Origin: Candidatus Woesearchaeota archaeon
Lineage (GTDB): Archaea > Nanobdellota > Nanobdellia > SCGC-AAA011-G17 > GW2011-AR18
Assembly: GCA_018302765.1 (NCBI GenBank)
Contig: JAGVZG010000013.1
Location: forward strand, 1 to 21,653
Length of the DNA stretch: 21,653 nucleotides
Direction of reading: 5' to 3'
This document shows, one piece after another, positions 4,718 through 20,294 of this stretch (position 1 is its first letter; every line of letters starts with the position of its first letter). The notes under the pieces were generated by a model. It ran no database searches. It was not told the origin of the DNA and was given only the letters and a program-made list of their open reading frames with translations. Both the position numbers and the translations under genes were made by a program.

Positions 4718-5350
4718 ATGAAAATTACTTTTGCTAATTTTTTAATTGTTTTGATTTTGTCTTTACTGCTTTGTTTTACTATTATTTCTTTTAGTTTTTT
4801 AATTGTTGTTTATGACCTTGATTTTTACAGGTATGAATTTACTAAAAGTGGCGTTTATGATAATTTTAGTAATGGAACTTATGTAGACTCTATTGCTAGT
4901 AATTTAATTGGTTATTTTTATGGCAAAACTGATTTATTCAATATTTACACTGAAAAGGAAGCAGTACACCTCCATGACGTCAAGAACATTATTAATTATT
5001 TTACAATATTGTTTTTCTTATCTTTTTTTATATTGGTTATTGTTCTTTCATATTTACATCATTTAAATTATAAGTACTTTGGGTTTATTTTTATGTTTAG
5101 TTTTATTTTCTTGGCTTTTATTTTATTTTTATTGATTGCTTCTTTATTTTTAGACTTTGAATATATATTTGATGGATTTCATAGATTATTTTTTACCGGA
5201 GATTCTTGGATTTTAAGCAATGATTCCCTTCTTATTGGCTTGTTTTCAGAAGGTTTCTTTTTTGATGCATTAGTTAGGGCATTATTTTATGCCTTTATTT
5301 TTAGCTTTTTAGTATTTTGTTTAACTTTCCGATTTAGAAAAATAATTTAA
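4718..5350 (+). CDS. DUF1461/TIGR01906-family membrane protein, similar to lipoprotein intramolecular transacylase Lit
   Basis: 4-TM layout with EAVHLHDVK (H84, D87), FDGFHRLFF (H155), DSWIL and LLIGLFSEGFF motifs characteristic of this family. Confidence 0.75.
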   Translation: MKITFANFLIVLILSLLLCFTIISFSFLIVVYDLDFYRYEFTKSGVYDNFSNGTYVDSIASNLIGYFYGKTDLFNIYTEKEAVHLHDVKNIINYFTILFFLSFFILVIVLSYLHHLNYKYFGFIFMFSFIFLAFILFLLIASLFLDFEYIFDGFHRLFFTGDSWILSNDSLLIGLFSEGFFFDALVRALFYAFIFSFLVFCLTFRFRKII

Positions 5351-5372: not shown

Positions 5373-5972
5373 ATGGGGTTTTTTGAGAAATTAGCTGAAA
5401 ATAAATCTATTATATTATTTATTCTTATTTTAGATATTATTGGGGTATTTTTTTCTGCTTATACTTATCGTTATGATATTTTGATTAATATAAGTATAGG
5501 GGATTTTTTCATAATTCCTTTTTTCATGGTCAGCTTTTGGTTATTTTTCCTTTCTGCTTTGTGTTGTTTTTACTTGTATAAAAGTAGGAAATTGCCTTCA
5601 TTTTTAGGAGGTTTGTCTTTTATTTATTGTTTTGTTTATGGTTTTGGTTCTGTATTGTTTTATCCTTTGTTTATGTTTTTTGTAAGAGGTGTAACTCTCT
5701 ATCATGTTTGGAATATTTTTGCACATGGATTTGTTGGCTTACAATCTTTGATTTTTATTAGACATGTAAATAAGTTTAAGATTTTTCACTATTTGAGTTT
5801 TGGATTTATTTTTCTATTCAAGGATATTTTGGATTTATTTTACAGTGGGTTTTTGTATTTTGTTAATTTTATTTTTCCAGATTTTTTGAAAACTATAATA
5901 ATATTTATAATTGGCGCTTTGCAGATTGTTGCTTTTTACTTGTTATTTGTGTCTGACAAAAGACTTAAATAA
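5373..5972 (+). CDS. Divergent DUF1405 (YpjA/LhaT)-like polytopic membrane protein
   Basis: About 6 TM. The motif order ILDIIG, YG, AHG..GLQ (H118, Q124), FH, KDILD (D151, D154) parallels YpjA as I recall it, but the usual PDSP motif is replaced by PFFM. Confidence 0.55.
   Translation: MGFFEKLAENKSIILFILILDIIGVFFSAYTYRYDILINISIGDFFIIPFFMVSFWLFFLSALCCFYLYKSRKLPSFLGGLSFIYCFVYGFGSVLFYPLFMFFVRGVTLYHVWNIFAHGFVGLQSLIFIRHVNKFKIFHYLSFGFIFLFKDILDLFYSGFLYFVNFIFPDFLKTIIIFIIGALQIVAFYLLFVSDKRLK
5964..5971 (+). promoter_or_regulatory. Candidate TATA box for module 1 (overlaps the end of the upstream gene)
   Basis: GACAAAAGA-CTTAAATA, 21 nt before the ATG at 5993. Confidence 0.4.
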
Positions 5973-5992
5973 CTTCAAATTTTATTATGGAT

Positions 5993-6751
5993 ATGCAAAA
6001 AAGAGGCCAAGTTAGTGTATTTGTTATTATTGGTTTAGTTATTATTGCTGCCATGATTTTTGTTTTTTTTCTCTTTAGAAGTTTTCAGGAAAAAGCAAGA
6101 GAAATTACAAACCCACAGGAATATTTAAAGTCACAGATACAAGACGTAAAGAAGGCTGTAGTTAAGTGCATAGGAGATGAATCTGAAGGTGCTTTAACTA
6201 AACTTTCAATGCAAGGAGGACATCTTAATCCAGTTAAATATATAAATTATTATGACAGTAAGGTTACTTTTTTATGTTATAAAGTTAAAGATGATGAACC
6301 CTGCTATAATTTTATGTTTACTAGGATGGAAATTGAGGATGAGTTGGGGCCTTTATTGAAAAAGAATATCAAAAGTTGCGTTGATTCAAGTTTAAGTCCT
6401 TTTAGAAAAAAAGATTATGTTCTTAGCACTGGAGATTATGGTTTTGATTTTGTTTTTAGTGATGAAGCACTTCTTGTTATTTTAGATTATCCAGTAACTT
6501 TAACCAAAAGTAAAATTATTGAGATACAAAATGAATTTAGCAGTAATGTCAAGACTGATTTTTGGAAGACTGCAGTTTTGGCTTCTTCTATAGTTAATTC
6601 TGAAGCTAGGGGTGAAATTGTTGATTTGGTTAAGATAAGTCCTAATAATTTGTACTTTGAAGTAGGAAGAAGAGTAATTACAGGTGGTAATTTATATATG
6701 ATAATTCCTAGAAATGGAGGCCAGACTTTTTATTTTGCTGTGGAAACATGA
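5993..6751 (+). CDS. Module 1 small protein: class III signal peptide (type IV pilin-like) protein
   Basis: MQKRG/QVSVFVIIGLVII leader, 4 conserved Cys, QGG motif, C-terminal FYFAVE. The ORF track starts at 5987; 5993 fits the TATA spacing. ATGA overlap with the next gene. Confidence 0.85.
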   Translation: MQKRGQVSVFVIIGLVIIAAMIFVFFLFRSFQEKAREITNPQEYLKSQIQDVKKAVVKCIGDESEGALTKLSMQGGHLNPVKYINYYDSKVTFLCYKVKDDEPCYNFMFTRMEIEDELGPLLKKNIKSCVDSSLSPFRKKDYVLSTGDYGFDFVFSDEALLVILDYPVTLTKSKIIEIQNEFSSNVKTDFWKTAVLASSIVNSEARGEIVDLVKISPNNLYFEVGRRVITGGNLYMIIPRNGGQTFYFAVET

Positions 6752-9700
6752 AAGCTAGAAGTTTATTTTTCCTTTTAATTGTTGTAGCTAGTTTTTTTTT
6801 AGTTGCAATCATTGTTAATGCTGAAGGCTGTTGTTTAAAGACTAAAGGTGACAACGGACAATATTGCGTTAGCGAAAGAGATGGAGCTAGTGCAGCCAAT
6901 TGCGAAAGTAGTATGTGGTTCTCAGAAGATTGTGATGCAAAGGACCAGTGCAAGAACAAAGGTTGTTGCTATGTTGATAATGACTGCAGAGATGATCAAC
7001 TTGAGATAAAATGCATTGGCAGTGCAGGTGAGTTTAGCAGTGGCAACTGCGAAAGTACACCAAGGTGCAAGAAACTTTGCTGTCAGGCAAGCGATGAGGA
7101 GTCTTCTGGTTATTTTTATACTACTCAGAGTGGGTGCGATGCTATGCAGGGTGTTGAAAAATCAGACGTAACTGATGAGGCTTCTTGCGAAAATCTTAAC
7201 AGAGGTCTTGATGCTCAGAGAGGATGCTGTGTTTTAGATAGTGGTGAATGCAAAAGAATGTTGAATGATGAATGCAATAGAGTAGGAAGTCAGCCTCCTT
7301 ATGAGGGGTTTTTTTGTAGAGATGTTGGTGCTTGCGATCCTAAGTGTGAGGGAAAATATCGTATTGGGCCAGGTAATCCAAGAATAAGCGAAGAGTCTAA
7401 TAAAATTTATTGGTATGACAGCTGTGGAAATCAAGAGGACTTAGTTGATGAGACTGATCCAATTGAAGCATTTAAGCATGCAGGATTTGATGAGCCATTC
7501 AATGGCGATTGTGATGCAGATCCTTCTTCTGCAGTAGTTTTGACAAATGAGGGACAGTTTACTTGTGCTAATTTAGTTTGCAACAATATTTGGGATAACC
7601 CAAGAACAGATGAGAATTACAATGGAAATTTGCGTGATGATAATTTTTTTGATTTTGCTGAAAGAAGAAGTTTTAGGTATAACGGAGAGAGCTGGTGCGA
7701 ATATGTACAGGCAAAGGTTGGTTTTGGCTTAGACCTTCCTGGAACTAGACATTATTTGCATTACTGTGAAAGGGGCAATGAAAGAGTTGATGAGAAGGCG
7801 TCTGATGGAGGCAGAGATTACGTATGTGCTGAGAGTTTTTTGGATAAGACAAAAAGAAAAACAGATGGAACTCAAGTTACTTATACAATGACCAATGCTA
7901 CTTGGATTAAGAATAATGCTGCTGATTGTTTTAAATGTAATGACAAAGCTGTTGTTGATTCAGGACATGTTTTAGATTGCTGCAGGCAAAAACAAACCTG
8001 TTCTTATGTATTTAGAAAAGCAATAAAGCCAGACACTGTAATTATAAATATTAATGAGCAGGAGTACAATAACATTAAAGATTCTGTAGGCAAAGCAAAT
8101 AGGTTTTTGAAATTAAGATACAAGATTAGTGATTCTGTTATCAAGGAAGAAAATTTATTGTCCGCTGTTAGAATACCTGGCTCTTGCAGTGGGGGCTGTA
8201 ATTTAGAAATTATCAATCCACCAGTTGGTGAATATGAAGTATTTGTTTATGGAAGAGGCTGTGACTCTCTTGGTTTGATTTGTGAAACTAGAGAAGTGAC
8301 TTTAGGGAAGAGAACTTTTAAGCCTGCTGATTTACAAGGTGTTTGTCTGCCTTTAATTGCTCCTACAGGAAATGAGTTCTGCAGTTCCTTTGCTGACTAT
8401 GGTTTTTCCAAGGTTGACACTTCAGTGAGTTATAATTATTATTATGATTTACCTTATGTTGGTTTTGGTTTTGGTGATGAGTGCCAGAATACTTCTGGTT
8501 GCATAGACCTTCTTTATAAAAAGACAAACAATTTAAATAATTTAAAATCAAGCGAAGGTTCTTTAATTATGTTAGATAATATTTATTCCTTGTGCAGTGC
8601 TTTTGGCGATTGCGGCTACAAGCCGAATCTTTTGGGAATTATGGGAAACAATATTTCCAGCAGTTTGAATGCATTTAGCTTTTGCCCTCGCGGCTCTGAC
8701 AGTGGCTGTGTTTATTTTACTTATTCAGAGGTAATTAAGCTTCAAGGAAAGAAATTTTTAGGCATTTTGAATGGCACGCCATCTAGACCTGAAATTAAAA
8801 CAGATATAAATCCTTTATTTTTTGGACTGCCTTTATCTTTATTTAGAAGGAAGAAAAATAAAAAAATGTTTATTGCTTTTTTAATATTACTTCATTTAAT
8901 TCTTATTGCTTGTGAGGAAGGCGGAAGATATTTGCAAGGACATCCAGATTTACAGTCTTTTGATTGCAATAAATTGATACCTGCTTCTGGAGCTGCTGAT
9001 TGTGGAAAGTGCAATGCAAACTGGAGCTCTGGTGGAATTCTTCCAGATATTAATTTAACAACAGCTGACGGCAAATTAGTTTATCAGTGCACTCCTGAAC
9101 TTTGTTATAGTTTAGGAGTTAAAGATCAGCAGTGCGAGTTTGTTCCTAATAAAGAAGCAGGAGGACTTTGCATTACTAAGGAAAGCTTTAACATTCCTAG
9201 GATAAGTTTTGTTGGTGCAAATTATTCTTGCAGTAGTTTAAATAGAGGTGGTTGTTCAGCTAGCAGTTATCATATAGAAAATAGTGAAAGTCCTTATTTA
9301 TTTATTGATGGCAACTTAGAGGAAAATATACCTTTAACAATTAGTTTTAAAACTATAAACGTTAAGGAGGGTTCTGGAAATTCAGGAATGCCTGCTTTTT
9401 GTTATTATAGTAAAAATAAAGATACAGGCGATGATCGCAGATTAAAAAAATTAAATAGTATCGATTCTGAAGATGGTGGAAATCTTAAGATAGAGCACAA
9501 TTTTGATATAGCTGGAAAGCCGCTTGGACAGTATAATTATTTTATTCAATGCGAAGATCAGGCTGGAGATATTACTACTGTTGGTAATATTAGATTTAGC
9601 GTTGCAAGAGGACCTGATATTGGTGCGCCAAGAATAGCAAGAATAGAGCCTTCTGATGGAACTATTTACGTCAAGAATGGAATTTATGATAAAGATGTTA

Positions 9701-10587
9701 CTATTTTTGTAAACGGAAGAGTTAACTTGTGCAGATGGGACAATAAGAGTGTAAGATTTGAAGAAATGGGTGTTGTTACTAATGTGTGCAGAGGATGCAG
9801 TAATGATGGAAGAGATATAATTGATAGATATGTTGGACCTAATTCTTTCAGTTGTAGAGTAGATTCAGAGTCTGGCTTAAGTGTCTGCCCTGCTAATCTT
9901 AAATATATAAATTTAGGATCAAATAAGTTTTGGTTTGCATGCAATGGCACAAATGGAAAAATTTCTGAAATATCTCCAGAAAACGGCTATGAAATTATAA
10001 GTACTAGTTCGTTAAACATCACTGATGTAAGTTGTGAGCATAGTTTAGGAAACGGTTGTGACAAAATTTATGATAATTATTTTAATTTTTTAATAAAGAC
10101 TTCAGGAGGAGCAGAAAGTGGAAGGGCTCAATGCAGGTGGGCGCCTGATGGCTATGACTATGATTCTTTCACTGAGCCTGGCTTTGATTATAGAGGCTTA
10201 ATAACCGTATCTAAGTATGGCATTGTACACAAGAAGCTTAATTACGCCCATGATACAGGAGTTGTGAAAATGAATTTCTTGTGCAATGATGTTGCTGGAA
10301 ATATTGCCCAGAAAAGTTTAACAATAAGTATAGAAAGAGACGTGAACCCACCTAAAATAACTAAATCTTATAGATACGGTAATGAACTATACGTTCAAAC
10401 GAATGAAATTAGTAATTGTTATTATATATCAAGCACATTTGGCAGTTTTGATAATTCAACACAATTTACTACGTCTGACGGTTTGGAACATCATACAAGT
10501 ATTGAAACTAATTTTTATAGAATTAGATGTGAAGACAAGTTTAATAATAAAAAAGATATGGACATTTATATTAGCAAGTTACAGTAA
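6748..10587 (+). CDS. Module 1 giant Cys-rich exported protein (1279 aa) with internal hydrophobic segment and C-terminal Ig-like repeats
   Basis: Sec-type leader ending VNA/EG; four CC-repeats; YDSCGN, NGESWCEY, LPGTRHY and GDCG core motifs; four C-x-(Y/W)...C-x-D-x-x-G-N type domains; many N-X-S/T sequons. Confidence 0.85.
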   Translation: MKARSLFFLLIVVASFFLVAIIVNAEGCCLKTKGDNGQYCVSERDGASAANCESSMWFSEDCDAKDQCKNKGCCYVDNDCRDDQLEIKCIGSAGEFSSGNCESTPRCKKLCCQASDEESSGYFYTTQSGCDAMQGVEKSDVTDEASCENLNRGLDAQRGCCVLDSGECKRMLNDECNRVGSQPPYEGFFCRDVGACDPKCEGKYRIGPGNPRISEESNKIYWYDSCGNQEDLVDETDPIEAFKHAGFDEPFNGDCDADPSSAVVLTNEGQFTCANLVCNNIWDNPRTDENYNGNLRDDNFFDFAERRSFRYNGESWCEYVQAKVGFGLDLPGTRHYLHYCERGNERVDEKASDGGRDYVCAESFLDKTKRKTDGTQVTYTMTNATWIKNNAADCFKCNDKAVVDSGHVLDCCRQKQTCSYVFRKAIKPDTVIININEQEYNNIKDSVGKANRFLKLRYKISDSVIKEENLLSAVRIPGSCSGGCNLEIINPPVGEYEVFVYGRGCDSLGLICETREVTLGKRTFKPADLQGVCLPLIAPTGNEFCSSFADYGFSKVDTSVSYNYYYDLPYVGFGFGDECQNTSGCIDLLYKKTNNLNNLKSSEGSLIMLDNIYSLCSAFGDCGYKPNLLGIMGNNISSSLNAFSFCPRGSDSGCVYFTYSEVIKLQGKKFLGILNGTPSRPEIKTDINPLFFGLPLSLFRRKKNKKMFIAFLILLHLILIACEEGGRYLQGHPDLQSFDCNKLIPASGAADCGKCNANWSSGGILPDINLTTADGKLVYQCTPELCYSLGVKDQQCEFVPNKEAGGLCITKESFNIPRISFVGANYSCSSLNRGGCSASSYHIENSESPYLFIDGNLEENIPLTISFKTINVKEGSGNSGMPAFCYYSKNKDTGDDRRLKKLNSIDSEDGGNLKIEHNFDIAGKPLGQYNYFIQCEDQAGDITTVGNIRFSVARGPDIGAPRIARIEPSDGTIYVKNGIYDKDVTIFVNGRVNLCRWDNKSVRFEEMGVVTNVCRGCSNDGRDIIDRYVGPNSFSCRVDSESGLSVCPANLKYINLGSNKFWFACNGTNGKISEISPENGYEIISTSSLNITDVSCEHSLGNGCDKIYDNYFNFLIKTSGGAESGRAQCRWAPDGYDYDSFTEPGFDYRGLITVSKYGIVHKKLNYAHDTGVVKMNFLCNDVAGNIAQKSLTISIERDVNPPKITKSYRYGNELYVQTNEISNCYYISSTFGSFDNSTQFTTSDGLEHHTSIETNFYRIRCEDKFNNKKDMDIYISKLQ
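10565..10572 (+). promoter_or_regulatory. Candidate TATA box for module 2, embedded in the last codons of the module 1 giant gene
   Basis: GGACA-TTTATATT, 21 nt before the ATG at 10594. Confidence 0.45.
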
Positions 10588-10593
10588 TTGATT

Positions 10594-11394
10594 ATGAAAA
10601 AAAGAGGACAGCTTTCAGTTTTTATTGTGGTAGGGATTGTTTTGATAGTTGTTTTTATGCTGTTTTTTTTCTTCAGGGATAAAATTACCAAGACATTAAG
10701 AGAGGAACCAATAAACCCACAGGAATATTTGAATCAGCAACTTGATGACATAAAGATGGAAATTGGAAGGTGCGTTAATCAAGAGACAAGCAAAGCGTCT
10801 AAATTATTAATGGAAAACGGAGGAGTATTTAATAGAAAATTCGGATTTATTCGTTATATTAATATTAGTTATCCTGTATTATGCAGAGAAATTAATGGCA
10901 CTGGATCTTGCTTAGCTGAACCGATATTGATTTCTAATTTACAAGGTAAACTTGGTACTTATTTGCCAGAAAAAATAAATAAATGTATTAATCTTGAAAG
11001 CTTTAAGAATAAGGACTATAGTCTTGTTTTCAGAGTTGGTAATTTAACAGCAGTTATTCTTGATGAAATTATAGTTGTTGATTTAGGTTTTTATGTTAAG
11101 TTAAGTAAAGGCCCTTATATTGCTGAAAAAGATAGCTTTGTTTATAATTTAAATATTCCTTTAGGTGCTTTTTCTAAACTTGCTAATAGTCTTTTGCAAG
11201 TTAAGGCTGGAGGCACTGAGATAAATTCATTATTTTATGAATTATTATCTTTTAATAAGTATTTAATACAAGTCAGGAAGCCTTATCCAGATGAAGTTTA
11301 TGATATTACTTTAACAAATAATGATAAATATCATTTTTATTTTGCTATTGAAGGCATTGGAAGATATGAAAGGGTAGAGGGAAGACTTAGATGA
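10594..11394 (+). CDS. Module 2 small protein: class III signal peptide (type IV pilin-like) protein
   Basis: MKKRG/QLSVFIVVGIVL leader, NPQEYL shared with module 1, 4 Cys, KPYPD shared with module 3, FYFAIE. The ORF track start at 10588 is TTG; ATG 10594 is preferred. Confidence 0.85.
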   Translation: MKKRGQLSVFIVVGIVLIVVFMLFFFFRDKITKTLREEPINPQEYLNQQLDDIKMEIGRCVNQETSKASKLLMENGGVFNRKFGFIRYINISYPVLCREINGTGSCLAEPILISNLQGKLGTYLPEKINKCINLESFKNKDYSLVFRVGNLTAVILDEIIVVDLGFYVKLSKGPYIAEKDSFVYNLNIPLGAFSKLANSLLQVKAGGTEINSLFYELLSFNKYLIQVRKPYPDEVYDITLTNNDKYHFYFAIEGIGRYERVEGRLR

Positions 11395-14300
11395 AAAAGA
11401 TGATTGTTTTTGAGACTATTTTTGAGATTTTTTTAGTTATAAGTCTAATATTTGTTTTTGCTTTATTCAATGCTGCTCAGGTTTATGCAGATGATCAGCA
11501 AGAAAAAAGAGTATGCTGCCAGAAAGCTGTGATTGATGGAGAAACAAGATACTGTCAGTATACTGAGAAGAGGAATTGTGATGCGAACTCTGGAGTATTT
11601 GACAATAGGTGTGAAGACGTGAGTGTTTGCAGGCCTGTGTGCTGCAACGTTAATAATTTAGGTTATTTAGCAAGCGGAGGGCAGGGATGTTTTAAGAGTG
11701 TTTCTATGAATTCTTGTGTTAATGAATTACATGGACAAGTTATACCTGATGCTCAATGCAATGTGCCTGAGTGCAAGAAAGGTTGCTGCACTGTTGGTAG
11801 TCAGTGCACTTTAACTACTTCTGACAACTGTCAGAATCTGACTAGTTCTTATTCAAATTTAGAGTTGAAATATAATCCAGATGTTAGTGATGAAATTGGA
11901 TGTTTGAGTTCATGCAGATCTCAAAATCGTGGCTGTTGCATTACTAAAGGCGAGAGTGGAATAAGTGCTTCGTCTTGCAGAATGATTACTTTTGGTGAAT
12001 GCAATTCTGCAAACGGTCAATTTTATGAAGGCACTTCTTGCGTTGATCTTCCTGCTGATGTTCGTGACTGCGACAAATGTAAATACAGTAATGATGAGAA
12101 GAAATTAGGATGCGTTCCTGATATTGATAGTGGAGAAGATGTTTATGAATATGACAAATGTGGAAATCCTGTTAAGGTTGCTAGTTTAGGATCAGACGGC
12201 AGAAACGGTGACTGTGATTATTCTAAAGGAAATATATGCAGGGAACAGAATGGAAGTGCTTTTTGCAGAAATTTAAATTGCAATTCAGATGAGATCTGGG
12301 ACAATCCTTTTGTTGATGAAAATGGAGATTGCTGTATTAGTAGAAATAAAGATGGAATTTGTGTAAATATGAAAGGTTCAGATGATGTATGCTGGACAAA
12401 TGATAAAGAGTTTCATGGTGACAATAAATTTAGAGTAAATGGAGAGAGCTGGTGCGAGTATGATGCAGATGCAGGACCGTCTAGAGATCTGCCTGGCACT
12501 AGACATTATGTTCACTCTTGCTATGAAGGAGAAGAAATAGTCCAGGAGTGCAAAGATTACAGAGAAGAATATTGCGTACAATTTATTGGTGGAGAGATCG
12601 ATCAGGCTTCTTGTGTTAAAAATAAGGCAGCAAAGGAGTCTTGCGCTAGTTGCGATAATGACCAACGATGCTGTGAGACAAAGTTTTCTGGAAGTTGTGT
12701 ATGGGTTCCTGAAAATCCTATTAATAATCAAAGAGTAGTTAGTGACGCTAGGAAGATATATGAAAATAAATGTAAATTTGACAAGGAACATGATAATAAT
12801 ACTGTTTGTTCTGCTCCACCAGAAGTTCCTAATGTTACTAGTAGTGGTACTAATGGCAAATGTGTTCCTTTAGTTCCTCCAGGCACTAAAGACAGAGAAG
12901 ATTTTTGTAAGGCTGCTAGCAAAAGTTTTGATACTTTATGGGTTACTTATGGATGGGGGAGTGATTATCATTGTGCTGGTGGCTGCGGGACATATATGAA
13001 AAAATTTGGTTATAATTATAATAATTATTGTAGAGCTTTAGGCGACTGTGGCGCTGATTTTAATTTAGCTGGTGAATGGAGCGATCAAGGTTTTGCTAGG
13101 AAGTGTGATCTTGTCGGTTTATCTTTCGATGATATAAAAGGCGACCAGTCTTCTGGCTATGTTACTGAAGGTCTTAGCGATGAAGAAGCTACAGACTTAG
13201 ATAATATTTATTATAAATATAAATTTGATGATTCTTATAAAGGTCAGCAGGAAAAACTTGTTGGGCTTGTTACAAACTGTAATAAGCCTTTAGAAATCCC
13301 TGATACTTACAGAGGGAAAATAGAATCATTTGTTGACTTCTCTAAATACAAAGGAAGTTTATTTTACAATCTAGAAAATTTTGGTTCTATAGATTTAGGT
13401 GCATTTACTAGAGGCAAAGACGCTATGAAATGGATAGGTATTATTGCTTCTGTTATATTTGTTGTTGGTGTAGCTCTTAAGGCTACTTTAATTGCTTTAA
13501 CATTTCTGGGTAAAGTATTGATCGCCTTTTTGAGTAACCCTTATACTATTGTCATCGCTCTTGTGCTTGCTGTTATATTAATAGTAACTTCAACTACAAT
13601 GGACTCTAAAGAGCAGAAAGTTAATGTTCAATGTAAACCTTGGACTCCACCTATTGGAAATAAAAATTGCAATTTATGTTATGAGTCAGGTTATCGTGAG
13701 TATATAGATTTTAATAATCATGATGCAGATCCGAAGACTGGTTACGTTAAGGAATTTGTAGACTTGACTGCTGGAGGCTTACATCATTGCACTCCTTATC
13801 TTTGCTGGAGTCTAGGACAGGGTTGCAAGTTTGTTGAAACCAATGATGGAAATAAATGTGTAGCTCAGGAATGTACTTCTAATGCACCTAAGAGAAAACC
13901 ATTGTCAAAACTTCAAGAATTAAACCTTGCAAGCTGCAGAGATAGTGATGACTCTGTTACAGGCAAAATAATTCCTTGTACTGCAAGCAATGTTGTCACA
14001 GATATTGGCCGTGGTGGTTATGAAATTAAATACGTTAAAGAAAATACTGATATTACTGTTGGTGTAGAAACTGACAAATTAGCTGTTTGCAAATGGGACT
14101 GGGAAAGGAAATCTGACTATGAGGAATTAACTAAATATTTTGACCAGAGTGCAGCATCAACAACACACACTGTTACTTTGGAAGCTGACAGAGATTTATT
14201 ACCAGGTGCACAAAAAACAATTAATGTAATTTGTAAAGATACTTGTGGCAATCCAGGAGGAAGTTATCCTTCTTATACAATAAATATTAAAGTTTCTAAA

Positions 14301-15176
14301 ATGAGAGACTTGGGAGCTCCTGCGTTTGTAAGTATAGATCCTCCTGATAATTCTCCTGTTAAGTCAGATTTAATAGCCAATGTGACTGACGTATTAATTA
14401 AATTGAGTGAGCCAGCAACATGCAGGTGGGGCAGAACAAATGATCCTTATGAAATTATGAAAGGGATTGCTCCTAATTGTGATACACCTTCTAGAGGATG
14501 TACAATACATTTAACAGGAATACAAGAAGGAGTAAATACTTTTTTTATAAGGTGCAAAGATAAATCAAATAATACAAATATAGATGCCTTGCCAAACAAT
14601 AATGGCTATAGATTGATAAGAAGCAAGCCATTACAAATAACAAATATCAGATGCTTAAACAGTTTTGACGACAAATGCGGAACAATTTATGACAGTAATT
14701 TTACATTAGAGGTGACTACTGCTGACGGAGGCTATAATGGTAAATCAATTTGTTTTGCTTTGAGTAGCAATGGCTTGGAATATGAATTTTTTAAAACAGA
14801 TTCCAGTATTCATACACAGGTTGTAGGTCCTAGAAGCACAGGAAGCTACACTGAAAGAATTAAGTGCAAGGACTCAGTTGGAAATGAAGATGTTAAAACT
14901 GTTAATTTTACCATGATAAGGGATGAAGCACCTCCCAAATTACTGAAATTGAGTTTTGAAACAGGAAATTTGAATTTGCTGACTGATGAGATAGCAGTTT
15001 GCAAGTATGGAGACAACAGCAGTTTAATATTTAGTGAGATGATACAGTTTGATAGTACTGCAAATATAAAACATACAACTTCTGTTGGAGCAAGAAATTA
15101 TGTTCATGTTAAATGCGTTGACAGGTTTAATTACGTTGCAAGTTTTGATGTTTACAGGAGCGGAAAGTCAGGTTAA
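11391..15176 (+). CDS. Module 2 giant Cys-rich exported protein (1261 aa)
   Basis: Leader ending VYA/DD; four CC-repeats; YDKCGN, NGESWCEY, LPGTRHY, GDCG and CKPWTPP motifs; long hydrophobic stretch at 13431-13598; Ig-like C-terminal repeats. Confidence 0.85.
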   Translation: MKKMIVFETIFEIFLVISLIFVFALFNAAQVYADDQQEKRVCCQKAVIDGETRYCQYTEKRNCDANSGVFDNRCEDVSVCRPVCCNVNNLGYLASGGQGCFKSVSMNSCVNELHGQVIPDAQCNVPECKKGCCTVGSQCTLTTSDNCQNLTSSYSNLELKYNPDVSDEIGCLSSCRSQNRGCCITKGESGISASSCRMITFGECNSANGQFYEGTSCVDLPADVRDCDKCKYSNDEKKLGCVPDIDSGEDVYEYDKCGNPVKVASLGSDGRNGDCDYSKGNICREQNGSAFCRNLNCNSDEIWDNPFVDENGDCCISRNKDGICVNMKGSDDVCWTNDKEFHGDNKFRVNGESWCEYDADAGPSRDLPGTRHYVHSCYEGEEIVQECKDYREEYCVQFIGGEIDQASCVKNKAAKESCASCDNDQRCCETKFSGSCVWVPENPINNQRVVSDARKIYENKCKFDKEHDNNTVCSAPPEVPNVTSSGTNGKCVPLVPPGTKDREDFCKAASKSFDTLWVTYGWGSDYHCAGGCGTYMKKFGYNYNNYCRALGDCGADFNLAGEWSDQGFARKCDLVGLSFDDIKGDQSSGYVTEGLSDEEATDLDNIYYKYKFDDSYKGQQEKLVGLVTNCNKPLEIPDTYRGKIESFVDFSKYKGSLFYNLENFGSIDLGAFTRGKDAMKWIGIIASVIFVVGVALKATLIALTFLGKVLIAFLSNPYTIVIALVLAVILIVTSTTMDSKEQKVNVQCKPWTPPIGNKNCNLCYESGYREYIDFNNHDADPKTGYVKEFVDLTAGGLHHCTPYLCWSLGQGCKFVETNDGNKCVAQECTSNAPKRKPLSKLQELNLASCRDSDDSVTGKIIPCTASNVVTDIGRGGYEIKYVKENTDITVGVETDKLAVCKWDWERKSDYEELTKYFDQSAASTTHTVTLEADRDLLPGAQKTINVICKDTCGNPGGSYPSYTINIKVSKMRDLGAPAFVSIDPPDNSPVKSDLIANVTDVLIKLSEPATCRWGRTNDPYEIMKGIAPNCDTPSRGCTIHLTGIQEGVNTFFIRCKDKSNNTNIDALPNNNGYRLIRSKPLQITNIRCLNSFDDKCGTIYDSNFTLEVTTADGGYNGKSICFALSSNGLEYEFFKTDSSIHTQVVGPRSTGSYTERIKCKDSVGNEDVKTVNFTMIRDEAPPKLLKLSFETGNLNLLTDEIAVCKYGDNSSLIFSEMIQFDSTANIKHTTSVGARNYVHVKCVDRFNYVASFDVYRSGKSG

Positions 15177-15205
15177 TTGCAAATTTTCTAAAATAAACAA
15201 AAACA

Positions 15206-15213
15206 TTTATATA
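15206..15213 (+). promoter_or_regulatory. TATA box with BRE-like element for module 3
   Basis: CAAAAACA-TTTATATA, 21 nt before the ATG at 15235. Confidence 0.6.
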
Positions 15214-15234
15214 GAATAAATAATGATTAATGCT

Positions 15235-15993
15235 ATGCGTAAAAGAGGTCAGGCTACAGTATTTGCTATAATTGGAATTGTTATTCTTATAATAGTTGCA
15301 TTGTTTTTTTTCTTGAGAAATGAATTTGGTTTTTTTGTTGCACCGACAAGTTTTTTGAGCGACAAAGCTAAACCTATTGAAGATAACTTAAAGGGATGCA
15401 TAAACCAAGCTGTTTCTAATAATTTAAATTATTTTGGAAAACAAGGCGGGGATTTTGGTCCTACACGTTATGTTCTTTATGAAAGCAATAATGTCAAATA
15501 TTATTGCACCAATATTCCCAATGATGAAAAATGCCTGAATGTTATGCCTAGTTTGGATGAAATGATTGCTGCTCTGAATAGTAAAATACAAGATGATGTT
15601 AATGATTGCGTGGATAAAAGTTTAGTTGAGAGTGGCTTTGGATATAAAATAGAAGCAGGAAAAATAACAATAAATACTTTAGCTTCTGGACCAAGTTTGA
15701 TTGTTAAGGCGCATTATAATGTAAAAATTTTTAAGGATGAAAACAAATTTAGTGTCAGAGATATTACATTAAGTTATGATGCACCTCTTGAAGATATTTA
15801 TTCTGTTGCTGTTGATATAGTAAATGCTGAAGCAAGAGTTGGCTTTTTTGAGCAACTATTATATATGCTGAATAAAAAAGGGCAATTTATAATTAATTTA
15901 GATAAGCCATATCCTGATAAGATTTATAAAATTCATAAGAAAAATAGTAATTTTGAGTTTTGGTTAGCTATTGAGGGCGAGAGAAATATATGA
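15235..15993 (+). CDS. Module 3 small protein: class III signal peptide (type IV pilin-like) protein
   Basis: MRKRG/QATVFAIIGIVIL leader, 4 Cys, QGG, KPYPD, FWLAIE. The ORF track start is 15223; 15235 fits the TATA spacing. Confidence 0.85.
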   Translation: MRKRGQATVFAIIGIVILIIVALFFFLRNEFGFFVAPTSFLSDKAKPIEDNLKGCINQAVSNNLNYFGKQGGDFGPTRYVLYESNNVKYYCTNIPNDEKCLNVMPSLDEMIAALNSKIQDDVNDCVDKSLVESGFGYKIEAGKITINTLASGPSLIVKAHYNVKIFKDENKFSVRDITLSYDAPLEDIYSVAVDIVNAEARVGFFEQLLYMLNKKGQFIINLDKPYPDKIYKIHKKNSNFEFWLAIEGERNI

Positions 15994-18900
15994 AAATTAG
16001 AGTTAAGAGATTTTTAGCTTTGGCACAGATTTTATTAGTTATTAGTTTGATGTTTGTTTTAGGTTTTACTTTTAGTTCAGCTAGTGTTTCTGCTGATGAG
16101 GAACAGGTTTGCTGTGAGAAAGATAATGACGGGAATTATTGCAATTATGTTCCTTCTAGTAAGTGCACTGGTGCCGGAGTTTTAAAAGCTTCAACTAGTT
16201 GTGACCAAACTAGTTTTTGCAAAGCTGGATGTTGTGCTGGAGTAAATGGTTTTTGTTATAGCAATTATGCAAAGGCTTTATGCGAGAAGGGATATAGTGG
16301 AAGCTATAGCAATGATAAAAACTGCGATTCTGTTGCTGAATGCAAACTGGGTTGCTGTATTATAGGAACTCAAGCTGCTTATTTAACTAGAAATAGATGC
16401 ATACAAGAAACAGGCAAATTTCCTGATTTAGAAGTTGATTTCAGAGAGAGCGTTAATACTGAACAAGATTGTTTGAACTTAGCCAGAAATACTGAGAAAG
16501 GGTGCTGTGTTACTTCAGACAGAAAATGTAAATACGATGCAAAATCTGAATGCAGTGTTCAGGATGTAGTAAATGGAACTGGTTTTTATAAAGATACTTA
16601 TTGCAGTAGCTTGACTAACTCATGCGATTGTGCTCCACATAAAGATGGAGATCCCAGAGCAACTACTTGTTTAGCTAATGATGATAGAGTATTTTGGAAG
16701 GATAGTTGTGGAAATCCTGAAGGTGTAGTTGAAGGGATAAATTTGAAGAGTTATGATAAAGCTGCAGTTTTATCTGATGGTAAATGTGATTTTAATAAAG
16801 GAACTTTATGCGGAGATTCTAATAAAGACGGTATAAATGTTTGTGAAAGTCTTGATTGCGAAGGAGGAACTGGAGTTGCAAGCAATAATAAATTATCTTT
16901 GCACATGGATAATTATGTTTCTAAAGATGGGACACGTGGCACACCTCTTGACGTAATTAATGAAGATGGATTACTAAACGGAGAGAGCTGGTGTGAGTTT
17001 GATAGTTCTGACCAACAACAGATTAACAGGATTGATTTTTTAAGTACAGCTGGTCGTGGCAGTAAAGATCCTGTTGGCAGCAGATACTATAGACATTTAT
17101 GTATTAATGGTCAGGAATTAGTTGAGCCTTGCAAGGATTTTAGGGAAGAGTATTGCTATTTTAATACTATTAATGTTGGCAGTAATTCTGGTAAATCATA
17201 CACCGAGTCTAGATGCATTAGCAATCAGTGGAAACCTTGCGTAAATGAGTGCAATACTGCTAATCCTCAGACGATGGATAGATTTACTTACACAGAGGCT
17301 TTGAAAAAAGACCAGCAATGCTGTTTGAGTTCTAAAAGAGATTGTTTTTGGAATAGCAATAAGTGCGTTCCTGCTGTAAGTCCTGGTTTTAAGTTTTGGG
17401 AAGGAGAAGGAGCTGAGATTTGTGCTAAGGCAAATACGCAGTGCGCTGCAACTTTTAGGTGCGGTGGATGGAATAGAATTTTTGGATGCGGTGAAGAAGG
17501 TACTAAGGCTGCTGGTAGCGTCGGAGGCATTGTTGCTGGAGCTGCTGCTGGAGGCTATACTGCATTAACTTTAGGTGCAACTGCCGCAGCTGCAGCAGGA
17601 CCTGTTGCTATTGCAGTTGTCGGAGCAGCATTACTCATAGGCCTTACTTCAGGACTTCAAGGAGGATGGCAGATAATTAGTGGCGGTGAATGTTTTAGCC
17701 AGGATTATTTGCAGGCAGCAAATAATTTGTGCAGAGCTGTGGGAGATTGTGGTGCTGATTATAATTACTTAACTAGTTATGCTGATAGAGATATAGATTC
17801 TAACTTTACTTTGGGAACTACAGGGTTTACAAATACCAAAAATGTAGAGGGAGAAATTGCTGAATATGCAATTAAAGAAAGAGATGGAAAATTACAAGAT
17901 ACAAAATCAGTAAGTGATAGAGGAAATGTTGAATTTACGTTTAAAGATGGAATTCCTGGCGTCTTGACTGATCCAGATTGGAAGAAGGGAGAAATATTTT
18001 ATAAATTCAATGTTAAAGGCAGAGAATTAGGAAATATGTTTGTCAGAGCTTTATTTACTGGCAATGAGGTAAAAGAGCAGGGTTGGTTATACTCGGCAGC
18101 TTCACTTAGTGCAGCTACAGCTGTTGCTGGGGGTGTTGTTGGAAGTATTGCTTGGGGTGTTTCTGGTGGCTTAGCTGCTGGAGTTACTGGGGCTTCATTA
18201 GGATTGTCTGCTTCACCTTTAGGTTACTTAGTTACTAAAGGATTAGAATTTATACCTACGCAATATACAAAAAACCTTGGACTGGCTGCTGGCAGAAACG
18301 CTTTTGAGTCTGCTGCCAAAAGTCAATTTGAAACAGCTTTGCCTTCCATCAAGACTGGGGCTTTACGTCCGGCTGTTGAATCATCATTAAAGGAGCAACT
18401 TGGCAAGGGCGTAAGTACAAAGTTAAGCGACGCCGAAATATTGAAGCTTGCAAAAGGTGAAGAAATTGCTGGAAAGATTGGAAAAGAGGTTGCTGGAAAA
18501 GTTAGTAAAGGTGCAGGTGAACAATTTGCAAAAGATCAAGCTGCCAGATCTTTTTCAGGCTATTTAACAGGCGTAAGTGCAGCTTTATGGTTATACACTG
18601 CTTATCAATTAGCAGACGTTTTCTTTGAGGATGTAAGGCAAGTTACTATATCTACAACGTGCCAGCCATGGCAGCCTCCTTCTTATAAAATTACAGAAGA
18701 AACTGATATATGCGAAAGATGCAATTCCCAATATAATGCAGATGATGAAGGCTATGTAAATAAAGATAAAACCCCAAAAGATGTAAGGGCTTTCAAAAAA
18801 TGTTCTGAATATAGATGCAAGAGCTTGGGACCAAGCTGTGAATTAATAAATAAAGGCACCACTGAAGAGTCTTGCGTATCAATAAACAAGTTAGATGTTA

Positions 18901-20294
18901 GCTCTCCAAAAATAGAACCTTGGATAGAAGGATTTACTTTAGGAATAAAAGAAAGTGACATAGTAAAGAATTCCAATGGTTTTATAATAAAAAAACAAAA
19001 AGAGATTCCAATTTATACACCATTTAATATCGCATTAAGGACTGACGAACCTAGTCAGTGCAAGATGAGCATGGAACATAGCAAAAGATATAATGAAATG
19101 GACAATGTATTTGGAAATAATATATTTAAGTATTTCCATATTAATACAATGTTTTATCCTGCTAATAGAAATACAACTGCAAGTGGCATATTATTAACTG
19201 GCGGTGGGCATTATAAATTATATTTAAGGTGCATTGATGCTGTAGGAAATGCGAATGAAAATGATTACGTTGTAGAATTTGATGTTAGCAGCGAACCTGA
19301 CTTAACTGCGCCTACAATATTTGGAAGTAGTTTATCTCCACCCGTACCTAATGATTTAGTTAACCAGACATTATTAGCCAAAGAAGTTTATTTGATGAGT
19401 GGCGCAAATTATACAGACATTACATTATTTGTTAATGAACCAGCTGAGTGTAGATATAGTTATATCCCTCTTGACTTTGGTTTTATGAATGAAACTAATT
19501 TATGCAAAACACAATTTAATCCCCCTTATTATGAGTGCAAATTTATTAGGGGTGTGCAAAATTTAGCTGGAATAGGACCTGCTCCTAGCGGATTTGTTTC
19601 GAAGCCAGGCTTGGCGCAATTTGTTTACTTTAAGTGCAGAGATCATCCTGAAGCAAGCTATAATGGAACAAGAAATTTCAATAAAGATGCTTACACTGTT
19701 GTATTAAGAGGAAGTGAAACACTTCATATAAGTAGATCAGGACCTTCTGGTACGATAAAAACAAGTAGTGCAATTGTTGATGTTACATTAGATGTTCAGA
19801 CAAGCGGCGGTGCTTTGTTAAATGGGAAATCAATATGCAAGTATACAACTGAAGAAATAAATAAAGAAAATTTAGCAGCTATGACTGAATTTTTAAATAC
19901 AGATTCAAGTTATCATACACAGCCTTGGAAGCCAAGTAGCGGAGCACAGAGGTTTTTTGTGGGGTGCTATGATCAAGCGGGCAACAGAGCATTTGCTAGT
20001 ATAAGTTTTGCTGTTGAAAAGGATGTTACTCCACCAATAATTGCTAAAGTTTACAGAGATCAAAGTTTCCAGCCACCACAATTTACTGTGGAAATAAATG
20101 AGCCTGGTGAATGTAAAGATAGTGTTGAAAGTATCTTTAATTATGATGCAGAAGGCAATTTAATGAATGCTGTCGGAAGCAGTGGAAGAGTATTTACAAG
20201 CACAGTTCCAAATTCAAATGTTTATTACATTGTATGTAGAGATCAGTTCAATAATACAATGGCTCCAGCAATTGTACAGATAGCACAGGTTTAA
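15990..20294 (+). CDS. Module 3 giant Cys-rich exported protein (1434 aa) with Gly/Ala-rich glycine-zipper segments
   Basis: Leader ending VSA/DE; four CC-repeats; WKDSCGN, NGESWCEF, PVGSRYY, GDCG and CQPWQPP motifs; hydrophobic segments at 17508-17669, 18081-18233 and 18552-18626; Ig-like C-terminal repeats. Confidence 0.85.
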   Translation: MKIRVKRFLALAQILLVISLMFVLGFTFSSASVSADEEQVCCEKDNDGNYCNYVPSSKCTGAGVLKASTSCDQTSFCKAGCCAGVNGFCYSNYAKALCEKGYSGSYSNDKNCDSVAECKLGCCIIGTQAAYLTRNRCIQETGKFPDLEVDFRESVNTEQDCLNLARNTEKGCCVTSDRKCKYDAKSECSVQDVVNGTGFYKDTYCSSLTNSCDCAPHKDGDPRATTCLANDDRVFWKDSCGNPEGVVEGINLKSYDKAAVLSDGKCDFNKGTLCGDSNKDGINVCESLDCEGGTGVASNNKLSLHMDNYVSKDGTRGTPLDVINEDGLLNGESWCEFDSSDQQQINRIDFLSTAGRGSKDPVGSRYYRHLCINGQELVEPCKDFREEYCYFNTINVGSNSGKSYTESRCISNQWKPCVNECNTANPQTMDRFTYTEALKKDQQCCLSSKRDCFWNSNKCVPAVSPGFKFWEGEGAEICAKANTQCAATFRCGGWNRIFGCGEEGTKAAGSVGGIVAGAAAGGYTALTLGATAAAAAGPVAIAVVGAALLIGLTSGLQGGWQIISGGECFSQDYLQAANNLCRAVGDCGADYNYLTSYADRDIDSNFTLGTTGFTNTKNVEGEIAEYAIKERDGKLQDTKSVSDRGNVEFTFKDGIPGVLTDPDWKKGEIFYKFNVKGRELGNMFVRALFTGNEVKEQGWLYSAASLSAATAVAGGVVGSIAWGVSGGLAAGVTGASLGLSASPLGYLVTKGLEFIPTQYTKNLGLAAGRNAFESAAKSQFETALPSIKTGALRPAVESSLKEQLGKGVSTKLSDAEILKLAKGEEIAGKIGKEVAGKVSKGAGEQFAKDQAARSFSGYLTGVSAALWLYTAYQLADVFFEDVRQVTISTTCQPWQPPSYKITEETDICERCNSQYNADDEGYVNKDKTPKDVRAFKKCSEYRCKSLGPSCELINKGTTEESCVSINKLDVSSPKIEPWIEGFTLGIKESDIVKNSNGFIIKKQKEIPIYTPFNIALRTDEPSQCKMSMEHSKRYNEMDNVFGNNIFKYFHINTMFYPANRNTTASGILLTGGGHYKLYLRCIDAVGNANENDYVVEFDVSSEPDLTAPTIFGSSLSPPVPNDLVNQTLLAKEVYLMSGANYTDITLFVNEPAECRYSYIPLDFGFMNETNLCKTQFNPPYYECKFIRGVQNLAGIGPAPSGFVSKPGLAQFVYFKCRDHPEASYNGTRNFNKDAYTVVLRGSETLHISRSGPSGTIKTSSAIVDVTLDVQTSGGALLNGKSICKYTTEEINKENLAAMTEFLNTDSSYHTQPWKPSSGAQRFFVGCYDQAGNRAFASISFAVEKDVTPPIIAKVYRDQSFQPPQFTVEINEPGECKDSVESIFNYDAEGNLMNAVGSSGRVFTSTVPNSNVYYIVCRDQFNNTMAPAIVQIAQV

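Follow-up and report, generated by a model that had tools for sequence, protein, structure and literature searches.

How does a protein family keep two cysteine motifs almost unchanged while the chain between them differs from copy to copy beyond recognition? This question is raised by a 21,653-nucleotide (nt) stretch of DNA from a Candidatus Woesearchaeota archaeon (contig JAGVZG010000013.1 of assembly GCA_018302765.1, positions 1 to 21,653; in the following termed the window), in which an array of three tandem modules, each composed of a pilin-like open reading frame (ORF; ~255-268 amino acids (aa)) and a giant ORF, encodes the giants G1 (1279 aa, 6748..10587), G2 (1261 aa, 11391..15176) and G3 (1434 aa, 15990..20294), all on the forward strand. 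The giants are paralogues with 24-31% identity and follow one plan, i.e. from the N- to the C-terminus a Sec-type signal peptide (aa 1-25 in G1, aa 1-33 in G2 and aa 1-35 in G3), a Cys-rich N arm, a central segment and a C arm, which in G1 is formed by tandem β-sandwich domains; the profile of the family matches both arms of G1. The central segment extends from the Cys of a GDCG motif to the Cys of a C-x-(KL/PW)-x-P motif. An initial annotation of the window regarded these segments as exchangeable cassettes reminiscent of polymorphic effector systems and offered two roles for them, an internal anchor that leaves both arms outside or a caged element that is deployed into the membrane of a target cell. 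Our analysis indicates that the middle of the giants is most probably neither swappable nor toxin-like, but a fast-evolving internal membrane anchor that is closed by conserved Cys residues.

Results

The central segments of G1, G2 and G3

The GDCG Cys corresponds to residue 622 in G1, 553 in G2 and 587 in G3, and the Cys of the C-x-(KL/PW)-x-P motif to residues 740, 748 and 891, respectively. The motifs, coordinates and segment lengths of the initial annotation proved to be exact: the central segments comprise 117 aa (8614..8964), 194 aa (13050..13631) and 303 aa (17751..18659). Both motifs are invariant or nearly so, at first among 25 and later among 201 family members, i.e. they are conserved far above chance.

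In G1, the GDCG motif (aa 620-623, 8605..8616) constitutes the final cluster of conserved Cys residues in the N arm. The central segment starts with a lead containing two Cys residues, followed by a hairpin that consists of a short hydrophobic stretch, INPLFFGLPLSLF (aa 687-699, 8806..8844), which in four orthologues is recognizable as a hydrophobic run with P-L/F-S after RPE, a basic cluster, RRKKNKK (aa 700-706, 8845..8865), and a transmembrane (TM) helix, MFIAFLILLHLILIA (8866..8913), ending in the lipobox L-I-A-C with Cys722 (nt 8911-8913). According to the positive-inside rule the basic cluster is presumably a cytoplasmic turn and would be equivalent to the n-region of an internal signal. 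The motif CNKLIP (aa 740-745, 8965..8982) then provides the first Cys of the C arm.

The segment of G2, bordered by GDCG (aa 551-554, 13041..13052) and CKPWTP (aa 748-753, 13632..13649), is composed of a conserved head, GADFNLAGEWSDQGFAR, an acidic lead with two Cys residues, an apolar block of 64 aa (aa 677-740, 13419..13610) and a tail of 9 aa. The apolar block harbors at least two helices of TM length, and AlphaFold2 places helices at aa 698-713 and aa 717-736. The segment of G3, located between GDCG (aa 585-588, 17744..17755) and CQPWQP (aa 891-896, 18660..18677), contains no Cys. It carries a Gly/Ala-rich, Gly-zipper-like apolar block of 52 aa (aa 698-749, 18081..18236), a Lys/Ala/Glu-rich linker that is helical in the model and probably cytoplasmic (aa 750-857, 18237..18560), and a last, weakly hydrophobic helix, LTGVSAALWLYTAYQLADVFFE (aa 859-880, 18564..18629), with the pattern W-x-Y-T-x-Y-Q-x-x-D, whose W867 lies exactly 24 aa ahead of Cys891. 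Moreover, G3 has an extra Gly/Ala-rich helical pair in its N arm ahead of GDCG (aa 505-560, 17502..17669; residues 173-199 and 208-224 of the model, helical, predicted local distance difference test (pLDDT) score 50-66).

The suggestion that each segment contains a hydrophobic, hairpin-like stretch thus applies to G2 with its 64-aa block. G1, however, has only one helix of TM length (aa 707-721), which follows the 13-aa stretch and RRKKNKK, and in G3 the 52-aa Gly/Ala-rich block is followed by a weak helix some 110 aa further on.

A family with a fixed slot and a variable middle

A family profile, built from 25 members, matches 7,746 cluster representatives if E≤1e-3 is allowed; with E≤1e-30 there are 2,304. 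The matches mostly run from end to end. Within the order to which the archaeon belongs, 38 of 41 genomes and 31 of 32 genera contain the family, which is usually present in two to four tandem copies. Throughout the phylum, it is concentrated in its own order and one further family; remoter proteins elsewhere in the phylum match the profile only in part, most often in part of the N arm. No family for the giants or for their pilin-like partners was obtained from Pfam and NCBIfam scans, nor did literature searches yield a paper describing the giant family.

The slot between the two motifs could be located in 153 representatives, where it comprises 117-433 aa (median 215). It usually starts with a conserved head, GA.YNLAG.WS..GF.R. 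The lead that follows is variable and frequently acidic; after it comes an apolar block with a median of 56 residues, which a short tail connects to C-x-PW. The last apolar run ends close to the Cys of C-x-PW: the median spacing is 9-15 aa, according to which detector is used, and 71% of the members having such a run keep it within 20 aa. G2 and most relatives appear to have a pair of hydrophobic segments of TM length at this fixed place; the first segment of G1 has only 13 aa, and in G3 and about 14% of the relatives no clear TM-grade pair is seen. The apolar blocks contain 17% Gly, 19% Ala and 4.1 GxxxG motifs per 100 aa, as compared to 1.9% Gly and 0.04 GxxxG motifs per 100 aa in the signal peptides of the same proteins.

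Parts of the architecture also occur on their own. In other orders of the same class we found proteins of 900-1,300 aa that share only the N-core with the giants (profile positions ~245-525, NGESWCEYD...DLPGTRHY; e.g. G042:C7:34417-35121 and G147:C21:2074-2712), suggesting that the N-core is older and more widely spread than the full giant architecture. Similarly, the protein P0036 (5,994 aa) gives 31 separate profile matches, all to the β-sandwich part of the C arm, so that this domain also serves in much larger repeat proteins.

The middle is inherited together with the arms

In the initial annotation the three central segments were termed unrelated. This is true for G1, G2 and G3 among each other, as past the first ~20 residues they cannot be aligned, not even in profile-profile comparisons. 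BLASTP gives no match among the three segments, and when orthologue alignments are compared by hhalign only the first ~22 residues match (GA.YN..G; G2- versus G3-type, probability 56%, E 1e-4); after trimming the segments by 17 residues nothing is left (probability ≤0.2%). Inside the lineages the statement does not hold, since orthologous segments share 25-43% identity (G2 versus its orthologues 25-35%, G3 versus P0025 35-43%). A good alignment and the behaviour of ordinary conserved anchors, named at the outset as the observation that would speak against exchange, are consequently found within each lineage but not across the three.

In order to follow the middle independently of its own sequence, we used a tree of the flanks only (44 giants from 30 genomes, quick IQ-TREE search; seven giants in which no anchor motif could be located were excluded). 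On this tree the anchor type changes 4 times, compared to 16.2 times in shuffles, and none of 200 shuffles is as low. The G2-type giants (10 members, all with a plain hairpin) form a clade with a support of 99, the G1-type giants with the lipobox one with a support of 100, and there is a G3-type clade (17/19 motif carriers). Thus, judged by the sequences, each paralogue in the window is an old lineage with its own anchor type.

The similarity of the cassette cores (pairs among 182 proteins, E<1e-6) fades steadily with the identity of the flanks. It is detectable in 92% of the pairs with at least 60% flank identity (24/26 pairs), in 85% at 50-60%, in 24% at 40-50%, in 6% at 35-40%, in 1% at 30-35% and in 0% at 25-30%. 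The two pairs with at least 60% flank identity that lack a match can be aligned globally at 44% and 39% identity, with insertions and deletions in the apolar part, and pairs with 61-76% flank identity keep homologous cassettes. Among the 182 proteins no pair with less than 30% flank identity shows cassette similarity, i.e. no middle is common to divergent frames. At the flank identity of the window paralogues (24-31%) cassette similarity is detectable in just 5 of 6,881 family pairs. Hence, fast divergence suffices to make the cores appear unrelated, and replacement is not needed.

A recombination of non-homologous cores between conserved frames, as in polymorphic toxins or effectors, would agree with invariant motifs that enclose cassettes which cannot be aligned past ~20 residues even profile against profile. 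Nevertheless, we consider it highly improbable, as the anchor type is congruent with the flank tree, detectability drops smoothly with falling flank identity, pairs at 61-76% flank identity are still homologous in the cassette, and divergent frames have no cassette in common. Moreover, neither the giants nor the genes around them match a toxin or immunity family in Pfam or NCBIfam, and the gene downstream of a giant is always the pilin-like partner of the following pair. Contigs from four other metagenome runs span all three cassettes with zero differences, which likewise speaks against exchange, although the weight of this evidence is low.

Around the GDCG stretch, which is conserved, contigs derived from reads also contained loose ends and short-sided joints; we attribute these to other family members in the metagenomes. 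A segment of 66 nt around GDCG of G3 (17701-17766) is the sole match of contigs in three metagenome runs, which diverge on both sides; they probably represent other family members whose junction is conserved at the DNA level.

Both arms are predicted to be outside and to meet at the Cys motifs

The N arm contains 8.9 and the C arm 3.5 Cys residues per 100 aa. Up to the GDCG Cys the number of Cys residues is odd in 159 of 182 proteins, and from the C-x-PW Cys onward it is odd in 172 of the 182, the first C-arm module having seven in 147 of them; the cassette mostly contains none or two. If all Cys residues outside the membrane were paired, the odd number in both arms would require at least one inter-arm disulfide. 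At least 197 of 201 members contain C506, C547 and C553 as well as the seven Cys residues of the first C-arm module from C748 on (G2 numbering). As all ten are nearly invariant, the junction Cys residues cannot be assigned to pairs from natural variation. Shortly ahead of the junction, the C-x3-C pair of G2 (aa 528 and 532, 12971-12985) is completely present in 130 and completely absent in ~59 of the 201 members; from its distribution it is a clean example of a disulfide that is gained or lost as a pair.

We next consider a prediction of the complex of the two arms, for which aa 330-575 and aa 740-960 of G2 were used with the cassette removed; both partners stem from a single chain, the alignment was made by us, and there is no solved structure of a similar complex. 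The predicted complex scores 0.63, compared to 0.00 for the best of three controls, with at least 91% of the contacts agreeing between runs and a pLDDT of at least 67 for the partner. The 0.63 mark is reached by 58 of 80 solved complexes and by 2 of 110 mismatched pairs. The contacts with the lowest predicted error are C547-C748, C553-C748 and C506-C748, i.e. the Cys residues in and ahead of the GDCG motif gather around the first Cys of the C arm. The model supports binding between the arms without demonstrating it, and it suggests that the two fixed motifs together make up a single Cys cluster, which would turn the middle into a closed loop. Together with the signal peptides, the Cys-rich arms with their odd Cys numbers and the invariant junction, the predicted contact leads us to infer that both flanking arms reside in an oxidising extracellular compartment.

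Split giants provide a further view of this arrangement. In five genomes of the class the giant is divided into two genes behind a pilin-like gene, which are adjacent in four genomes (L037:1418-5288; L038:4998-10021; L041:1111-4876; L042:955-5280) and lie on separate contigs in the fifth (L039:1138-2646 with L040:968-3235). The N-arm ORF encodes a signal peptide and the Cys-rich arm, stops 20-35 aa after GDCG and has no TM segment, whereas the C-arm ORF has a signal peptide of its own, a lead, a Gly/Ala-rich apolar block, C-x-PW and the β-sandwich arm. Cys numbers are odd in 4 of 5 N-arm and in 5 of 5 C-arm ORFs. As the cut lies at the start of the slot, the slot constitutes a domain boundary and the apolar block is functionally the anchor of the C-arm side. 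A disulfide would then be the only covalent hold on the soluble N-arm subunit.

Lineage-specific anchors

The G1-type orthologues, which stem from four genera, keep a strict order of elements: RPE, the short hydrophobic stretch with P-L/F-S, 5-7 basic residues, a hydrophobic helix of 14-17 aa and a lipobox, which is present in 4/4 proteins (LIAC, LISC, AGC and TSC). About 16 residues (15-17) after the lipobox follows C-x-x-W-x-P-P, the window copy having C-x-K-L-x-P. G1 from the window agrees with the pattern of a lipoprotein signal, [LVI][ASTVI][GAS]C, with RRKKNKK, MFIAFLILLHLI and LIAC in succession. The lipobox is confined to the G1 clade (3 of 182 located members and one further orthologue), and it is not N-terminal, but ends at Cys722 of 1279 residues in a protein that has a separate Sec signal (aa 1-25). 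Due to this internal position it is at most similar to a lipoprotein signal, not a canonical one. The total number of Cys residues in the mature protein is odd in 3 of 4 G1-type proteins, which fits one Cys that is free for lipidation. A reading of the RPE..PLS..basic stretch as a sortase signal was rejected, as no exosortase/archaeosortase (PF09721) was found in the 100%-complete genome.

The genome of the window encodes the enzymes that a lipoprotein signal calls for, i.e. a bacterial-type Lgt (PF01790, 220 bits; G000:C12:30600-31310, L043) and the signal peptidase II LspA (PF01252, 107 bits; G000:C6:27569-27940, L044). In addition, a Lit-like gene (69 bits) is located in the window itself (4718-5350), 1.4 kb upstream of G1. 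Lgt is present in 39 and LspA in 38 of 41 related genomes, which excludes contamination, whereas neither was detected in any of four archaeal control genomes. A paper from 2025 reports that no archaeal Lgt homologue has been identified and that AliA and AliB constitute the archaeal route, which is present in DPANN archaea, too (PMC12462473).

The G3-type is characterized by the motif LN..W[IA]YT[IA]YQ[LI].D[VI], found in 17 divergent representatives with the Trp exactly 24 residues ahead of the C-x-PW Cys. In 27 G3-type proteins, which are related sequences, the linker preceding this helix contains neither a single Cys nor a single N-x-S/T sequon in 3,294 residues; per 100 aa, the C arm contains 3.5 Cys residues and 1.07 sequons. 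Judged by this composition the linker is probably cytoplasmic and located between two membrane passages.

Structure models and fold searches

In AlphaFold2 models the apolar parts are helical, the junction residues are confident and the C arm forms confident tandem β-sandwiches. The conserved N-core reaches a pLDDT of 85-95, and in the G3 model the pLDDT climbs to 86-92 in the strand after the last helix. The C arm matches Ig, FN3 and PKD folds in a generic manner only (Foldseek, E down to 1.5e-12; VIA-align, Z 8.4-9.6), e.g. 2c4x_A (VIA-align Z 9.5, root mean square deviation 2.1, 87 aligned residues). A profile search of the PDB sequences gave no match at E≤1, i.e. no relative with a solved structure. 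The G3 model of core plus cassette, inside which the N-core was searched, has no match in PDB or BFVD at E≤1e-3, and its best VIA-align result (Z 7.4 on helical bundles) was rejected, being below the level that is meaningful for helices. Likeness to pore formers or fusion proteins was seen neither in this search nor with the whole G2 model, which gives only Ig, FN3 and PKD matches. In the ESM Atlas only unnamed DPANN clusters are found, with scores of up to 0.89.

Discussion

Based on these findings we propose that a giant is a Sec-exported, disulfide-rich surface protein that would be made together with its own pilin-like partner carrying a class III signal. The segment between GDCG and C-x-PW would leave the compact junction domain as a long loop, run through 60-120 extracellular residues, pass into the membrane of the producing cell by means of an even number of hydrophobic helices, and emerge again a median of 9-15 residues before the C-x-PW Cys. 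Owing to this out-in-out course both arms would remain extracellular and, once the N-terminal signal peptide has been cleaved, the hairpin would be the sole membrane anchor; a C-terminal TM segment or anchor is found in none of G1, G2 and G3. The two Cys motifs may meet in space, in G2 with C506, C547 and C553 around C748, and at least one disulfide would join the arms and shut the loop at the membrane surface. A loop that is only weakly constrained, i.e. to be hydrophobic and not to consist of particular residues, would diverge faster than the arms and freely accept insertions and deletions, yet be inherited vertically. The first of the two roles initially offered, an internal anchor with both arms outside, is thus the one favoured by the signal peptides, the lack of a C-terminal anchor, the fixed position of the apolar block, the odd Cys numbers and the predicted contact of the motifs.

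The three lineages appear to vary this scheme. In the G1-type the hairpin would be short, and its second helix would resemble a lipoprotein-type signal with basic cluster, h-region and lipobox, which may be lipidated and cut by Lgt and LspA. The G2-type would have a plain, Gly/Ala-rich hairpin, and the G3-type a Gly-zipper block, a Cys-free, probably cytoplasmic helical linker of ~110 aa and the conserved WxYTxYQxxD helix.

Several observations do not sit easily with an internal anchor. The cassettes are modelled with low confidence (pLDDT 26-60), and the number of membrane crossings is tentative: the G2 block may hold three helices, while G1 begins its hairpin with a proline-containing hydrophobic stretch that, at 13 aa, is rather short to span a membrane. 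Of the located relatives, about 14%, mostly G3-like ones, have no clear TM-grade stretch according to crude scales, and in these proteins the middle may not cross the membrane at all. The G3-type linker carries a small negative net charge, so the positive-inside rule lends no support to its cytoplasmic location. Finally, the inter-arm disulfide is deduced from parity, invariance and a predicted interface, not from chemistry.

Instead of, or in addition to, forming a hairpin the middle might be a maturation device, in which the last helix acts as internal signal peptide and is cut at its outer end, resulting in two chains held together by the inter-arm disulfide, similar to viral glycoprotein precursors that have internal signal sequences. 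The cut would be made by LspA after lipidation in the G1-type and perhaps by signal peptidase I in the G2-type. The features of G1-type proteins fit this possibility, with their basic cluster, an h-region of 14-17 aa and a lipobox 15-17 residues before the C-x-PW Cys, as do the presence of Lgt, LspA and Lit in the genome and of Lgt and LspA across the order. The odd Cys numbers on both sides, which two separate chains would need and which are seen in the split two-gene forms as well, and the tails after the last helix of G2-type proteins, which by eye are rich in small residues (TSD, SGG, GGE), are also compatible with it. However, Lgt and Lsp act on N-terminal signal peptides, and we know of no demonstrated case of internal lipobox processing. 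Further, the lipobox is limited to the small G1 clade (three of the 182 proteins and the additional orthologue), and the naturally split giants are divided where the slot begins and not past the last helix. On balance, we regard a maturation device as rather unlikely. The same caution applies to its most specific form, which we think doubtful but worth stating: Lgt and LspA would lipidate and cut G1-type proteins ~700 residues into the chain, like a polyprotein, and the products, an N-arm chain with a TM anchor and a C-arm chain with a lipid anchor, would be linked by the conserved inter-arm disulfide and could act on host membranes. If this were true, G1 would be a two-chain, disulfide-linked surface machine reminiscent of viral entry glycoproteins.

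The other role initially offered assigns the middle to a foreign membrane, as a disulfide-caged, membrane-active element, i.e. a fusion peptide or pore former, that is released, e.g. by reduction, into the membrane of an attached host cell. DPANN archaea depend on contact with host cells, and a Gly-rich composition with GxxxG motifs is typical of glycine zippers and viral fusion peptides, which the Gly/Ala- and GxxxG-rich apolar blocks recall; moreover, the relative P0021 carries the Pfam Gly-zipper domain PF13488, the loop would be shut by the conserved Cys cluster, and some G3-like members have no TM-grade helix. Beyond composition and disulfide clamp, though, we found no positive evidence for such an element, and much points to the cell's own membrane. 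There is no other anchor once the signal peptide has been cleaved, so the protein would leave the cell; the helices of G1 and G2 are ordinary Ile/Leu/Val-rich ones, with a strongly basic turn in G1; at 50-100 aa the blocks are far longer than fusion loops; in the split forms the block belongs to the C-arm gene and follows the signal peptide encoded there, as expected for an anchor; and the sequon-free linker of G3 suggests a cytoplasmic stretch. A caged element therefore appears quite improbable to us, and the internal anchor remains the reading we prefer.

Seen as internally anchored surface proteins, the giants resemble several known systems in part. With polymorphic toxin and effector systems, e.g. 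Rhs and CdiA, they have in common a conserved scaffold with a region that cannot be aligned between copies. In those systems, however, the toxin is C-terminal, has an immunity gene next to it and is exchanged among scaffolds that are almost identical, whereas in the giants the region is central and hydrophobic and diverges together with the scaffold. Viral glycoprotein precursors have a TM hairpin and an internal signal between two ectodomains, e.g. from E to NS1 in flaviviruses and from Gn to Gc in bunyaviruses, and the G1-type shares with them an ectodomain, a stop-transfer helix, a basic turn, a signal-like helix with a cleavage motif and a second ectodomain. Yet the giants are cellular genes of archaea, the motif of G1 is a lipobox and not a signal peptidase I site, and its cleavage is putative. 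With the lipoprotein signals of bacteria, the substrates of Lgt and LspA, the G1-type has in common the basic n-region, an h-region of 14-17 aa and [LI][AT][AGS]C, and the enzymes are encoded in the genome, but bacterial lipoprotein signals are N-terminal, whereas the one in G1 lies ~700 residues inside the chain, behind another exported domain.

The string of β-sandwiches in the C arm is similar to that of tandem Ig/FN3/PKD adhesins and S-layer proteins (SiiE, GhpA of Aureispira, SlaB), the likeness being one of generic fold only; while these proteins are anchored at one end, the giants would be held by a mid-chain hairpin. Tip sets of type IV pili, i.e. PilY1 and minor pilins, also place a large exported protein beside proteins with class III signals, and the genome studied here encodes a prepilin peptidase and T2SSE-type ATPases. 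The giants differ in having a 1:1 partner with overlapping stop and start, a membrane anchor of their own, and no ATPase or platform gene in the locus. Large proteins are also included in archaeal type IV pilus loci (PMC4858521).

The giants are among the largest unnamed protein families of DPANN archaea. Being nearly universal in the order and paired with a pilin-like gene, they are prime candidates for the apparatus that host-dependent cells use at their surface or for attachment; a role beyond that of a membrane-anchored surface protein working with its pilin-like partner is something we can only infer. The proposed internal anchor, its predicted closure by a Cys cluster, the arms encoded by two genes and the G1 lipobox near a Lit-like gene provide a concrete structural plan for such a protein, while the tempting analogy to polymorphic toxins is removed. 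New in this work are the congruence with the flank tree and the rate tests, the three lineage-specific anchors, the split forms, and the Cys parity with the predicted Cys cluster, as well as the connection of the G1 lipobox, with the Lit-like gene, to an order-wide bacterial-type Lgt and LspA, whose occurrence bears on how archaea make lipoproteins.

Genomic context of the giant array

The window is AT-rich (GC content ~0.24-0.40) and belongs to a genome of 1.02 Mb (100% complete, contamination 1.15%) of a small-genome, Woesearchaeota-type DPANN archaeon. The closest named homologues are labelled Candidatus Woesearchaeota and Nanoarchaeota, and DNA of the window is present in groundwater and soil metagenomes.

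The pilin-like partners of G1 (254 aa, 5987..6751, forward strand), G2 (268 aa, 10588..11394, forward strand) and G3 (256 aa, 15223..15993, forward strand) all begin with M..KRGQ and a hydrophobic helix, and in each of the three modules the start of the giant overlaps the end of the partner by 4 nt. A pilin-like partner lies upstream of most giants at the 30-odd loci examined; the exceptions are several giants, chiefly from other families of the order, that are not immediately preceded by one. The partners agree with the criteria for class III signals, which call for a short basic N-terminus, Gly at -1, Gln at +1 and a subsequent hydrophobic helix of ~20 aa, the pattern M..KRGQ[VLA][ST][VI]F.I.G being present in 49 partner ORFs, and the prepilin peptidase of the genome is of the Peptidase_A24 type (60 bits). 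The partner proteins match no pilin family in Pfam.

Ahead of the array are housekeeping genes, i.e. a signal-peptidase-like ORF, PCNA, the Lit-like gene and a gene for a DUF1405-like, multi-pass membrane protein (5373-5972; a weak match, E 0.006), which is located between the Lit-like gene and the first pilin-like partner and may be connected to the lipoprotein theme. At the start of the window an ORF of 484 aa (439-1893) begins with MGKRGN and a hydrophobic helix and has a further TM helix near aa 345-365. After the array follows a fourth, unpaired pilin-like ORF (20989-21519, 176 aa), which starts with MKKGQ and a hydrophobic helix.

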